A stretch of 64,000 nt of DNA, taken from positions 2,605-66,604 of the forward strand of contig CAOJKP010000007.1 in assembly GCA_948438085.1 (NCBI GenBank), in the 5' to 3' direction. The DNA is from an uncultured Clostridium sp. (GTDB taxonomy: Bacteria > Bacillota > Clostridia > TANB77 > CAG-508). The notes under the pieces were generated by a model. It was not told the origin of the DNA and ran no database searches. It worked only from the letters and a program-made list of their open reading frames with translations. Below are positions 35,390 through 40,020 of the stretch, piece by piece. The position numbers and the translations under genes were made by a program. The stretch's first letter is position 1. Each line of letters begins with the position of its first letter.

Positions 35390-38300
35390 CCCCAAAATAA
35401 ATTATTTTTTATTTATAATAATTTTTATTAAATTTATAATACTTTGTTATTAATATTTTAATTAAAATCTATAATTATATATATCTTTCTTGATAATATA
35501 CAATAAAATATTTATTTTTAATTTTTCTTAAATTTATTGTTATTAATTTTCTCATTAATAAATTAAATATTTATTGTTTTAATAAATATTTTTAATAAAT
35601 TTATAACTATTAAAATTTAATTCATTTCGTTTAAGATGATTTAATGTTATATACTTTTTAATTTGTTAAAATTATAGGTTATTATTTTTACATATTGTTA
35701 AATATCTTAAATAATATAACAATATAAAAAATTATTATTTAAATATTTTTTATATTGTTTATTTTAAATGAACATGAATTCAAATTAAATTTTATCAATA
35801 ATAAATCATTTGCATTTTTGATAATACTTCCTTAAGTTATTTTTATTAATTATTCATTTAAAATTTGATTTTTTATTATTGTTTATTCGCTCTAAATTAT
35901 TTGTTATTTGTTATTTTTATTTATTTTAGTTAAGCAGTTTCATTTTTATTTTAATAATAATTCCCTATTATTTATCATATTTATCTTAATTTCTTTTTTA
36001 TTATTATTTTATTTAGTAACTATTTATATATATTTTTTATTAGCTTTTATTATCTGATATTATTACTATTATCTAGACTTTTACCACTAACTTATTCTAC
36101 AATAAGATATATTTGTTTTATTTAATAAATAATACTTTTTCCGCAATTTTCACTTAGTTATTATTTTATTAATCTTTAATTGATTAATTATTTTTCGTTA
36201 AATTTATCCTAAAATATTTTATAATTTTTTATTTAAATAATATTACTTTTATATTTATATTTTATATAAATTTTACATTTTAATTTTATACATATTCTTT
36301 ATTACTTTTTTAAAACAGATTACAATATCTTAATAATATCATTAATTTTCTCTTTACTTAAAATATTTATATTATATTTCTTTATTATTTAATTTTTATT
36401 TTACATATTATTCAATAATATTTTATACTTGATTGTATTTTAATATTCAAATATTTTAATTTCTTTTATGTACTTTCTTATTTACTAAAAAAACAATTAT
36501 CGTAAAACTTATTTTTTAATTTTATATTTTTACTTTTTAATATGATTTAATTAAATTGTTTTAAAAATATACTTTTATTATATATTTATTATATAATTAC
36601 TTGTTTTAATTATTATTTTCTTATATTTTTATTGTTTCCAATTATTATTAATATTTTAATATCTACTGATAATAGTAGTTCTATTTTTATTTATACTTAC
36701 ACTGATTTTAATTATTATTTTAAATATATATTTATTATAATTAATATATATTTAAAATATTTTTTATTAATATTTATTCTTTATAAGTTACTATTTTTTT
36801 CATTACATTACTGATTCTATTTTTCATTTAAAATTAAATTTCGTTTTAATTTTAGATAATTAATTATCATTGAAGTTTCTGTCATTAATATTTTATTTTT
36901 TAATTAATAAAGCACTTATTAATTAATTACAATAATTAGGTTATTTATAAATTTAATTTACTATAATAATATACTAAAATATTTTTAGTATATTATTAAT
37001 TTAGAATATATATATATATATTCTAACATTTTATATTATTATTAATTATTATTATTGTTTAGTTTTTTATTTATTTTAAATAATTTATATTAAATTTATA
37101 ATACTTTGTTATTAATATTTTAATATAAATTTATAATTATATATATCCATCTTAATAACAAATAATAAAATATTTATTTTTAGTTTTTTTAACTTAATAT
37201 TATTAATTTCCTCACCAATAACTTAAATATTTATTGTTTTAATAAATATTTTTAATAAATTTATAACTATTAAAATTTAATTCATTTTATTTAAAATAAT
37301 TTAAGGTTATATACTTTTTCATTTGTCAAAATTATAATTTATTATTTTTACATATTTTTAAATATCTTAAATAATATAAAAATATAAATAATTATTATTT
37401 AAATATTTTTTATATTGTTTATTTTAAATAAACATGCATTCAAATTATCTTTTATCAATCATAAATCATTTATATTTCTAATAATATTTCATTAAGCTAT
37501 TTTTATGAATTACACATTTAAAATTTAATTTTTTATTTATATTTTTATTTATTCTAGTTAAACAGTTAAAATTTTATTTTAATAATAATTATCTATTATT
37601 TATCCTATTTATCTTAATTTTTTTATTATTATTTTATTTAGTAACTATTTATATTATATATTGCTTATAATAATATATAATTTATATTTTATTAGCTTTT
37701 ATTATCTGATATATTTAATATTCTCTAAGCTTTTACCACTAAATTATTCTAGAATAAAATGTATTTGTTTTATTTAATAAATAATACTTTTTCCCAAATT
37801 TTTACTTAATTTTCTTTTTATTAATCTTCAATTTATAAATTATTTTTTATTAAATTTATGCTAAAATATTTTATAATTTTTTTTAAATAATATTGTTTTT
37901 ATAATTATACTTTATATAAATTTTATATTTTAATTTTATAGATATTTTTATTACATTTTTTAGAACAGAATATAATATCTTAATAGTATCATTATTTTTT
38001 CTTTACTTAAAATATTTATATTATATTTCTTTATTATTTAATTTTTATTTTACATATTATTCAATGATATTTTATACTTGATTGTATTTTAATATACAAA
38101 TATTTTAATTTCTTTTATGTACTTTTCTATTTACTTTTAAAAAAATTATCGCAAAACTTATTTTTTAATTTTATATTTTTACTTTTTTAATATGATTTAA
38201 TTAAATTATTTTAAAAATATACTTTTATTATATACTTATTATATAATTACTTGTTTTAATTAATTACTTTCTTATATTTTTATTGTTTCCAATTATTATT

Positions 38301-40020
38301 AATATTTTAATATCTAATGATAATAGCAGTTCTATTTTTATTTATACTTACACTTATTTTAATTTTTATTTTAAATTATTATTTACTATAATTAATATAT
38401 GTTTATAATATTTTTTATTAATATTTCCTCTTTATAAGTTACTATTTTTCATTGTATTTTTCATTTATAATTAAATCTCATTTTAATTTTAGATAATCAA
38501 TTATCCTTGAAGTTTTTGTCATTAATATTTTATTTTTTAATTAATAAATTTATTTTATTTGATAATAATTAATATTATATAAATACACTTCTTATATTTA
38601 CAATTTATTTTTATTTTTTTATTAATAAAGCACTTATTAATAAATTACAATAATTAGGTTATTTATAAATTTAATTTACTATAATAATATACTAAAATAT
38701 TTTTAGTACATTATTAATTTAGAATATATATATATTCTAACATTTTATATTATTGTTGTTTAGTTTTTTATTTATTTTAAATAATTTAAGGTTATATAAT
38801 TTTTCATTTGTCAAAATTATAATTTATTATTTTTACATATTTTTAAATTTCTTAAATAATATAACAGTATAAATAATTATTATTTAAATATTTTTTATAT
38901 TGTTTATTTAAATAAACATAAATTCAAATTAAGTTTTATCAATCATGAATCATTTGTATTTCTAATAATATTTCATAAGTTATTTTTATGAATTACTTGT
39001 TTAAATCTAAGTTTTTTATTCTAGTTAAGCAGTTCCTTTTTTATTTTAATAACAATTATCTATTTTTTATCATATTACTCAATTTATTTTTTATTATTAT
39101 TTTATTTAATAACAATTTATATATTTTTAATATTAACTTTTATTATATGATATTATTAATATTCTATAAATTTTTACCACTAAATAATTTACAATGAAAT
39201 ATATTTGTTTTATTTAATAAATAATACTTTTTTCCAAATTTTTATTTGGTTTTTATTTTATTAATTTTCAATTTATTAATTATTTTTCGTTAAATTTACC
39301 CTAAAATATTTTATAATTTTTTATTTAAATAATATTACTTTTATATTTTAATTTTATACATATTTTTTATTATATTTTCAGAACAAAATATAATACCTTA
39401 ATAATATCATTAATTTTCTTTTTACTTAAAATATTTATATTATATTTCTTTATTATTTAATTTTTATTTTACATATTATTCAATAATATTTTATACTTGA
39501 TTGTATTTTAATATTCAAATATTTTAATTTCTTTTATGTACTTTCTTATTTACTAAAAAAACAATTATCGTAAAACTTATTTTTTAATTTTATATTTTTA
39601 CTTTTTAATATGATTTAATTAAATTGTTTCAAAAATATATTTTTAAAATCTAATTGTATACTTTTATTATGTAATTACTTGTTTTAATTAATTACTTACT
39701 TTTTTATATCTTTATTGTTTTCAATTATTATTAAATATTTTAATATCTAATAATAATTCTATTTTTATTTATACTTACACTTATTTTAATTACTATTTTA
39801 AATTAGTATTTATTATAATTACTTATATATATATTAATATTTATCCTTTATAAATTCTTATTTTTTCTCATTATAGTTACTGGTTCTATTTTTCAATTAA
39901 AATTAAATATTATTTTAATTTTAGATAATTACTTATCATTAAACTTTCACTCTTAATAATTTATTTTTTAGTTAATAAAATACTAATATTTATAATCTAT
40001 TTTTATTTTTCATCATTACT
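35390..40020. repeat. three tandem copies of a ~1.45-1.66 kb AT-rich repeat unit
   Basis: The anchor TAAATTTATAATACTTTGTTATTAATATTTTA occurs at 35417 and 37079. The anchor ...ATATCTTAATAATATCATTAATTTTCT...TTCAATAATATTTTATACTTGATTGTATTTTAATATTCAAATATTTTAATTTCTTTTATGTACTTTCTTATTTACT... occurs at about 36317, 37967 and 39397. Copy 3 lacks about 215 bp at its 5' end and copy 2 has an ~80 bp insertion; identity is roughly 85-95 %. Confidence 0.85.

Follow-up and report, generated by a model that had tools for sequence, protein, structure and literature searches.

The present analysis concerns a repeat array in a 64,000-nucleotide stretch of DNA from an uncultured Clostridium sp. (assembly GCA_948438085.1, contig CAOJKP010000007.1, positions 2,605 to 66,604 of the forward strand), which as a whole is called the window in the following. 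The window is a segment of bacterial chromosome whose genes have a GC content of about 25%, and it is the oriC region of a Clostridia-type genome, because the cumulative GC skew turns (minimum) at ~54.5 kb, because dnaA, dnaN, recF, gyrB and gyrA are found to the right of this turn and gidA, gidB, parA, parB, a DUF4446 gene and two tRNA-Ser genes to its left, and because perfect DnaA boxes form clusters at 54528–54702 and at 56225(–56338), which flank dnaA and have no counterpart elsewhere in the window. A GerM/Germane sporulation protein is also encoded. About 10 kb from oriC, on the replichore with the − strand as leading strand and adjoined by the parAB-DUF4446 genes, there is a gene-free AT-rich island, the GC content of which is 6.5–21% per 200-bp segment compared with about 25% in the flanks. 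It extends from the stop codon of a CoA-enzyme activase gene (33274) on the left to the terminator of an orphan gene, orf142 (44388–44407), on the right. The array makes up 41% of this island, the extra copies alone amounting to ~3 kb of its 11 kb. It is a tandem duplication array, in which the copies lie head to tail, the junction between them is reiterated and the copies evolve in concert, and it probably grew without any selection on its sequence. Its parts are:

33275–44380, no strand assigned: AT-rich non-coding island of 11.1 kb with ~11% GC (from GC windows, the list of open reading frames, codon periodicity and Rfam)
35402–37063, + strand: repeat copy 1 (c1), 1662 bp, the full-length unit (nhmmer match 35406–37062, E = 0)
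37064–38764, + strand: repeat copy 2 (c2), ~1.70 kb, with an 81-nt insertion (nhmmer; 91% identity to c1)
38765–~39982, + strand: repeat copy 3 (c3), ~1.22 kb (profile positions 206–1620; alignment of the junction and of a deletion)

An earlier note, made by eye from the sequence, had described three tandem copies with periods of about 1650 and then about 1430 bp, which were said to be 85–95% identical and much too long for iterons or CRISPR. This description was confirmed. A direct-repeat search revealed three-copy families across 35402–39980 with spacings of 1649–1662 and then 1418–1485 bp. A profile hidden Markov model (HMM) made from the copies and run against the whole 64-kb window with nhmmer gave exactly three matches, all on the + strand and contiguous, namely 35406–37062 (E = 0), 37068–38548 together with 38610–38767 (E = 0 and 2e-25), and 38752–40093 (E = 1e-287); there was no fourth copy in the window by this profile, the next-best match having E > 1. 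The gapped identities are 91% (c1 and c2), 86.5% (c1 and c3) and 85% (c2 and c3), and the compositional background identity within the island is ~64–66%. Long blastn matches of 64–66% identity were considered as further diverged copies and rejected as compositional noise. A CRISPR array or iterons, which consist of short repeats (~17–50 nt) at regular short spacing, are ruled out by the unit length of 1.66 kb, and Tandem Repeats Finder reported only degenerate low-complexity micro-arrays. Copies of an insertion sequence or transposon are likewise ruled out, the unit being devoid of an open reading frame and its inverted repeats being local hairpins at one end rather than terminal pairs.

The array is also present in another sample. 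A contig of an independent short-read assembly (ERZ14650998, NODE_455; in the following L029) is 99.88% identical to positions 18957–39587 of the window (20.6 kb), a span that takes in flanking genes, c1 and c2, the two junctions and some of c3. It is the only other assembly that extends across both junctions, and its three-copy structure is identical. Contigs from two further samples, L039 and L002, come in from the parB side, end at 39421 and 40568, and include sequence of c3 and of the island's right part. When public metagenome and viral contigs were searched with a 23-mer common to all copies, only one same-species contig was found. Many short-read contigs from independent samples stop at the left edge of the island (~33383–33391), just inside its right end (43079–43087 or 44266), or in or just past the tRNA-Ser genes (45224–45319). 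Since such islands break short-read assemblies, AT deserts of this kind are probably lost systematically from metagenome-assembled genomes (MAGs) and under-reported in MAG catalogues.

The history of the array can be read from its junctions, scars and palindromes, which are the following:

36900–36926, 36965–36997 and 37001–37026, no strand assigned: three perfect AT palindromes at the 3' end of unit 1 (folding z and list of inverted repeats)
38618–38740, no strand assigned: palindrome cluster at the 3' end of unit 2, 98% identical to 36891–37017, with palindrome 2 at 38683–38715 and palindrome 3 at 38719–38740
38549–38629, + strand: c2-specific 81-nt insertion in the left arm of palindrome 1 (from alignments; its placement is ambiguous by ~10–17 nt)
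38779–38788, + strand: deletion scar, a single AAATAATTTA in c3 where c2 holds two, at 37078 and 37294, 216 nt apart
36329–36567, + strand, with paralogues at ~37978–38217 and ~39397–39635: homogenised block of 240 alignment columns, c1 and c3 being equal at 238 of the 240
37314–37382, + strand: strain-variable gene-conversion tract in c2, the other strain having the bases of c3 at 4 clustered sites

The c1/c2 and the c2/c3 junctions are identical, both reading TTGTTTAG followed directly by TTTTTTATTTATTTTAAATAATTTA, with the common junction text in c3 starting at 38759. From this identity it is concluded that the third copy came about by unequal homologous exchange between two existing copies and not through a new breakpoint. 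Copy 3 opens like c2 and then, ~25 nt in, jumps by 216 nt exactly between two 10-nt AAATAATTTA repeats. The shorter second period is therefore due to a later microhomology deletion in c3 and not to another duplication end-point. The note had c3 lacking ~215 bp at its start; the missing stretch is real (216 nt), but it is internal, since the start of c3 matches that of c2. The insertion of about 80 bp that it had seen in c2 is confirmed as the 81 nt at ~38549–38629, which are flanked by duplicates of ATTTTTT(T)A(A)TTAATAAA. Other indels in the array are 6- and 7-nt slippage events. At the far end, the homology of c3 stops approximately at the axis of palindrome 1, past the c1 equivalent of ~36912, where the identity drops to a background of ~60%. 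The stems of the three palindromes comprise 11, 16 and 11 bp, and the folding z of the cluster is −5.1 on the + strand and −4.0 on the − strand; because its folding stability is symmetric on both strands, the cluster is considered to be a feature at the DNA level. Between its end and the junction that follows there are 38 nt at c1/c2 and 25 nt at c2/c3.

Along the three-copy alignment the divergence is a mosaic composed of runs in which one or another copy is the odd one out. The best-conserved stretch is the block at 36329–36567, the AT content of which is like that of the remainder. Within its 240 columns c1 and c3 differ at 2 positions and c2 at 14, so that there are 16 variable columns as compared with at least 44 in 5000 permutations (P < 0.0002). 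As judged from this pattern, the block appears to mark a gene-conversion tract. It had been proposed in the note that short GC-containing islands are the best-conserved parts of each unit. The motifs named, TTTTACCACTAA and TTCTATTTTTATTTATACTTACAC, are indeed kept in all three copies, but the ranking does not hold: only 52% of the G/C columns are invariant among the copies versus 89% of the A/T columns (Fisher p = 3e-20), which makes G/C columns the least conserved. That they are the most variable is what AT-biased mutation is expected to bring about. Both motifs are absent from the islands of related species.

With respect to composition, the island (11.2% GC) is closer to the four-fold degenerate sites of the genes in the window (8.0%) than to the other intergenic DNA (21.7%), and its strand skews have the same sign as those at the four-fold sites of co-oriented genes. 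Because of these two properties the island is near mutational equilibrium. The density of single-nucleotide polymorphisms (SNPs) relative to L029 is 0.79 per kb in the island, 0.87 per kb at synonymous and 0.45 per kb at non-synonymous sites, these values being based on tiny counts (5 in the island, 2 synonymous). Composition and between-strain polymorphism are thus shown to fit those of neutral sites. Strains differ in the island also by the loss of a 7-nt repeat unit, by a (TA)3 change in a palindrome and by small indels, and the between-strain indels, including one of 189 bp, are restricted to the island. The 189-bp polymorphism is located at 41097–41284, where the stretch is absent in L002 and L039; these two also have 12-, 5- and 1-bp indels and 9 SNPs of the island in common. 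A contig of another sample (ERZ14499236, L001) departs from the window exactly at 44266 and continues with 112 nt (its positions 8258–8369) that were not found in the window, which reflects either an alternative allele of the island or a chimeric contig end.

There is no indication that the array encodes a protein. Open reading frames longer than 74 amino acids are not found in the island, the period-3 signal is 0.8–3.5 in the island versus 28–71 in neighbouring genes, none of the stop-codon reassignments tried gives open reading frames longer than in shuffled sequences, and the lengths of the indels in the array show no preference for multiples of three. On the grounds of open reading frames, periodicity and indel lengths a protein-coding tandem repeat, altered codes included, was rejected. 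With respect to RNA, Rfam yielded no match in the island, either at the gathering score or at E ≤ 1, and in the homologous island of a related species (L054) nothing but a chance match that was under the threshold and away from the conserved elements. On neither strand is the fold of the best-conserved core more stable than those of shuffled sequences (z +0.7 to +1.2), and when RNAalifold was applied to the three copies, the covariation term was unfavourable (+3.14 kcal/mol) with only 1 of 175 pairs compensatory. The only stable folds in the unit are the DNA-symmetric palindromes. It should be noted that in AT-rich genomes the templates of structured non-coding RNAs are richer in GC than average (PMC8632094) and that the island shows the opposite, ~11% versus ~22% in the other intergenic DNA. 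The note had offered a repeatedly duplicated non-coding gene as one possibility and had named covariation across the copies as a test for a conserved RNA structure. A non-coding gene is not supported: the unit has no Rfam match, no stable core fold, no covariation and no GC excess, and it is not found in sister species.

Other signals were sought with equally negative results. Promoter-like sites number 181 in the island as compared with 190±13 in shuffled sequences, and no terminators were found within it. The island contains no enrichment or clusters of DnaA boxes, no parS-like sites and no helical-phase AA/TT periodicity (curved DNA) above the genic background. Phage and plasmid records and viral and metagenome contigs showed no similarity to the island, except for same-species contigs. 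Neither an integrase nor phage genes were found in the island, nor a repeat of the tRNA 3' end at its far boundary, nor pseudogene remnants of the genes that are present in the islands of relatives.

The genes that border the island are:

28957–33274, + strand: CoA-enzyme activase gene (BcrAD_BadFG plus DUF2229), left flank, split by a +1 frameshift at ~29552–29586
44442–44870, − strand: orf142, orphan gene, right flank, with its own terminator at 44388–44407
45119–45309, − strand: tRNA-Ser(GCT) and tRNA-Ser(TGA), their 3' ends toward the island

The island is thus located between convergent units, with the activase gene, which has no downstream terminator, directed rightward and the tRNA-Ser genes and orf142 directed leftward. 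It is tRNA-Ser(GCT) (45119–45209, − strand) that faces the island, and the arrangement in L054 is alike. The frameshift in the activase gene was found in the 20 public-assembly contigs that were read, the 10 displayed being from 10 different samples, and homologues in related species are intact (1437–1441 amino acids, 80–88% identity). From these comparisons, the gene is either a species-wide pseudogene or a recoded gene. The species itself is present in mouse-gut metagenomes and MAGs, as exact-protein look-ups showed (e.g., PRJDB1463, GCA_949062245.1, GCA_949422685.1). No record was found for the 190-aa Germane open reading frame or for a 69-aa one of the island. Its nearest species representatives in GTDB are MAGs of uncultured Clostridia from rabbit and wild mouse with only 60–77% identity in DUF4446 and ParB, and on account of this low identity SFB, which had been considered as the source, was rejected.

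Among the relatives, the one with the most similar activase (L053, 88% identity) has a desert of at least 3.3 kb with 11–15% GC at the same place, and L054 (85%) has a gene-free one of 6.3 kb with 6–20% GC that ends at the two equivalent tRNA-Ser genes. In more distant relatives (82–84%) the interval measures 3.4 kb and contains a patatin gene (plus an HD-domain gene in one) and short gaps of 2–10% GC. For example, in L056 (14320–17714), and in the same interval of L058 and L060, the patatin gene is flanked by 250-bp segments of 2–10% GC. On the other side of the tRNA genes the distant relatives carry accessory genes (PDDEXK_2, EAL, rve integrase). The HMM of the unit finds no match in the islands of L053, L054 and L056, and the blastn scores of the unit against the islands of relatives equal those of a reversed-sequence null. 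Within the sub-clade the position of the desert is therefore conserved and its sequence is not. The interval between activase and tRNA-Ser is a variable locus. The island of L053 (14291–17160) has duplications of its own, in which ~510 bp recur at 71% identity (offset 1709), besides a ~250-bp element present 3–4 times. The palindrome TTAGAATAT..ATATTCTAA occurs in the repeats of L053 and also ends the repeat units of the window; nothing else of the array is common to L053. Because the island of L053 has its own, older internal duplications, duplication within such deserts is recurrent and lineage-specific.

The only sequence that is conserved between the islands of different species is a short element, box-1 (CGTCTTAAAATYGATTYTCRTGCGTC), of which the window has two direct copies:

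35104–35126, + strand: box-1, left copy, CTTAAAATTGATTCTCATGCGTC, 276 bp upstream of the array
43628–43650, + strand: box-1, right copy, which together with the left copy brackets 8.5 kb including the array

Box-1 is present in L054 in two good copies (15081 and 17865) and a degenerate one and in L053 in one copy (14857); in both relatives it precedes a further pair of conserved boxes, TGTGTTTATGTATACTYTT and CCGCAAGGC. A survey of ~100 kb of host DNA showed box-1 inside islands only. With a conserved context of ~75 nt it was found also in 17 phage contigs of IMG/VR (loci L062–L078), where it is intergenic and beside genes for endolysin, holin, DNA polymerase and thymidine kinase and not beside integrases. 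Lacking an adjacent integrase, box-1 was rejected as a phage attP site. Box-1 matches no Rfam family, the only hit in 8 of the phage loci being a tRNA away from it, and for box-1 with its downstream module neither a consensus nor a strong fold was obtained. It has the look of an intergenic cassette, terminator-like or portable in some other way, and it ties the deserts of the hosts to intergenic DNA of phages.

Taken together, the array is probably a neutral tandem segmental duplication, in fact a triplication, of 1.66 kb of unconstrained AT-rich DNA in a spacer with fast turnover. The following sequence of events can be envisaged. Fork stalling or breakage in the palindrome-rich AT spacer would have generated the 1.66-kb tandem duplication, the route being that a hairpin or cruciform causes the fork to stall or break and that template switching or unequal repair follows. 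Unequal homologous exchange of the two copies would then have given rise to the third copy with the same junction, after which slippage, microhomology deletion and insertion would have altered single copies and gene conversion would have held patches of them alike. The later part of this history is shown to be ordinary repeat dynamics, with a microhomology deletion, an insertion, slippage indels and conversion tracts, one of them still variable between strains. We infer that the palindrome cluster triggered the first duplication and set the right end of the array, that the array has no sequence-specific function and is the mode by which this desert grew, and that the desert is a fast-turnover spacer, a variable locus beside tRNA-Ser. 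The suggestion of the note that the repeat is satellite-like is correct in so far as non-coding DNA has been duplicated, evolves in concert and turns over rapidly in a species-specific manner; a true satellite, with arrays of tens to thousands of units, it is not, for there are only three.

There are, however, several points that weigh against a neutral origin. A compact, gene-dense chromosome whose intergenic regions are short is expected to delete useless DNA. Yet deserts lie at the equal position in at least three species, measuring 11.1 kb here, 6.3 kb (L054) and at least 3.3 kb (L053), and there could be selection on their presence or composition. The copies have diverged by 9–15%, which means that the array is old and fixed and no transient amplification. 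The 240-nt block could reflect constraint instead of conversion, all the more as c2, too, is nearer than average there. Finally, the neutral SNP comparison stands on 2 synonymous and 5 island differences, and the palindromes were assigned their role as trigger from position alone.

The main alternative is that the island including the array is a maintained structural element at the DNA level, in which composition and length rather than sequence are under selection and in which tandem duplication keeps up the length, as in eukaryotic satellites. Such an element might be an easily melted or flexible spacer by which the convergent units are buffered topologically or in their transcription, or it might form the boundary of a domain, or a tether, near oriC and parAB. 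The position is kept in at least three species without conservation of the sequence, the desert is an extreme outlier in a compact region, it is ~10 kb from the DnaA-box clusters and beside parAB-DUF4446, and it separates convergent units of which the activase has no terminator. The large desert is, however, not universal, distant relatives having just 3.4 kb with a patatin gene; its length differs by a factor of about two or more among species, and there are indels between strains; there is neither helical phasing of AA/TT above the genic background nor an enrichment of DnaA boxes or parS; and the polymorphism is at the neutral level. On balance we regard a structural element as doubtful. The more far-reaching version, that the clade keeps a multi-kb, gene-free block of ~10% GC beside tRNA-Ser and parAB-oriC which is selected for composition and length, is renewed in length by palindrome-triggered duplication, functions as bacterial counterpart of a satellite or centromere or as a topological or transcription-replication buffer, and has the ~25–75-nt element shared with phages as its only conserved sequence, is unlikely. 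If true, it would mean sequence-independent structural DNA near a bacterial origin, which would be new for chromosome biology. It is also unlikely, and to a similar degree, that the island is decayed phage-related or mobile DNA next to tRNA-Ser, with a core (35.1–43.6 kb) between the direct box-1 copies and with the units as internal repeats of the element. The island abuts the 3' side of tRNA-Ser(GCT), the two direct copies of box-1 bracket 8.5 kb, the context of box-1 is that of the 17 phage contigs and in the surveyed host DNA is confined to islands, the locus is variable with accessory genes in relatives (among them the rve integrase and the PDDEXK_2 protein), and an orphan gene, orf142, sits at the edge. 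Yet in the island there is no integrase, phage gene or detectable pseudogene remnant, no repeat of the tRNA 3' end and no similarity to phage or plasmid records or viral contigs, whereas the neighbours of box-1 in phages are genes for endolysin, holin, DNA polymerase and thymidine kinase instead of integrases and the viral loci contain no AT deserts. Moreover, a mobile origin would account for where the DNA came from and not for its triplication, and it is compatible with neutral duplication.

The chances are poor that every unit encodes a long non-coding RNA of weak structure, or forms a cassette for a small or antisense RNA, and was duplicated for dosage. Promoter-like hexamers are abundant, three conserved TTTACA-18-TATACT sites are found at equivalent positions (36400, 38049 and 39468), the 240-nt block is near-invariant, and the strand asymmetry of the island is consistent. 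The number of promoter-like sites is, however, equal to that in shuffled sequences and terminators are lacking; the core is unstructured, without Rfam match and covariation; the GC content is under the intergenic average, opposite to that of known structured non-coding RNAs in AT-rich genomes (PMC8632094); and the unit is not conserved in sister species, its G/C sites decaying fastest. That the array is an artefact of assembly, or a chimera with foreign AT-rich DNA, is very improbable even though short-read contigs of many samples end at the edges of the island and the L001 contig diverges at 44266. The independent assembly, which includes flanking genes, continues for 20.6 kb at 99.88% identity across c1 and c2 with their two junctions, contigs of two more samples that come from the parB side extend as far as 39421 and 40568, differences of 9–15% between copies cannot come from mis-assembly of one copy, and relatives have islands at the equivalent position. 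Least probable of all, to the extent that it can almost be disregarded, is a protein-coding repeat in an unusual code (e.g., a repetitive surface protein), or such a repeat that has recently become a pseudogene. Large adhesin genes typically have repeat units of 1.5 kb and the neighbouring activase is a pseudogene; against this, there are no period-3 signal, no long open reading frames under stop reassignment and no preference for indels in multiples of three, and at 11% GC all copies must have been AT-saturated already when they were duplicated.

In bacteria tandem duplications and amplifications form by unequal (RecA-type) exchange between sister chromosomes and are subsequently homogenised by gene conversion, as is known from classical work with Salmonella and Escherichia coli. 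The array resembles these amplifications in being head to tail, in its one reiterated junction, in that the two earlier copies gave rise to the third, and in conversion and slippage. It differs in that classical amplifications are near-identical, unstable, gene-carrying and kept only under selection, whereas the copies here are 9–15% diverged and gene-free and have the same structure in L029. In eukaryotes there are satellite and macrosatellite DNA, and palindromic AT-rich repeats (PATRRs) as hotspots of rearrangement. Like these, the array consists of tandem units that do not code, turns over rapidly and in a species-specific manner, and has AT palindromes at the rearrangement breakpoints; unlike them, the array has only three copies, its palindrome arms are 11–16 bp rather than hundreds, and nothing points to a centromere or chromatin role. 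Host-restricted, AT-biased genomes (Rickettsia, Mycobacterium leprae, insect symbionts) carry non-coding spacers derived from pseudogenes, and the composition at mutational equilibrium, the pseudogenised neighbouring gene and the host-associated, low-GC organism are reminiscent of them. However, the island has no recognisable gene remnant, the rest of the window is compact, and growth was by duplication rather than mere decay. The large non-coding RNAs OLE, GOLLD, ROOL and HEARO were likewise found as long intergenic regions, and the island is such a region in a Firmicute with tRNA genes nearby. Those RNAs are GC-enriched with respect to their genomes, highly structured and conserved across species (for the principle see PMC8632094); the unit has none of these properties. 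The AT-rich region of arthropod mitochondria is reported to evolve at high speed and to have short conserved elements (PMC4186805). What such control regions with tandem repeat units have in common with the island is that an extremely AT-rich non-coding stretch keeps its place on the map, that its internal tandem repeats undergo concerted evolution, that the sequences cannot be aligned between species, and that there are only one or a few short conserved motifs (here box-1). They hold, however, the replication origin and promoters, whereas the island has no DnaA boxes, is 10 kb from oriC, belongs to a bacterial chromosome and has units on the kb scale.

The repeat is ordinary in mechanism, and it is the gene desert hosting it that is the unusual object. 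If neutral duplication is the correct explanation, the array documents how non-coding DNA can grow stepwise in a compact bacterial chromosome, via palindromes, unequal exchange, microhomology deletion and conversion. It would at the same time warn against taking long repeats in AT deserts for genes.

Two minor observations may be added. The GC content of orf142 is 35–40% compared with 25% for the genome, and the gene has a strong terminator of its own. It is missing from the homologous locus of L054, and its sole match among 5.8 billion proteins is itself. Just upstream of the left box-1, a hairpin at 34930–35040 (+ strand) that has no match in an Rfam search forms the GC-richest spot of the island; this hairpin, CCGCGAAAATTGC-AAA-GCAATTTTCTGTGG, is stable, the z values in a 150-nt window being −3.6 (+ strand) and −1.4 (− strand).

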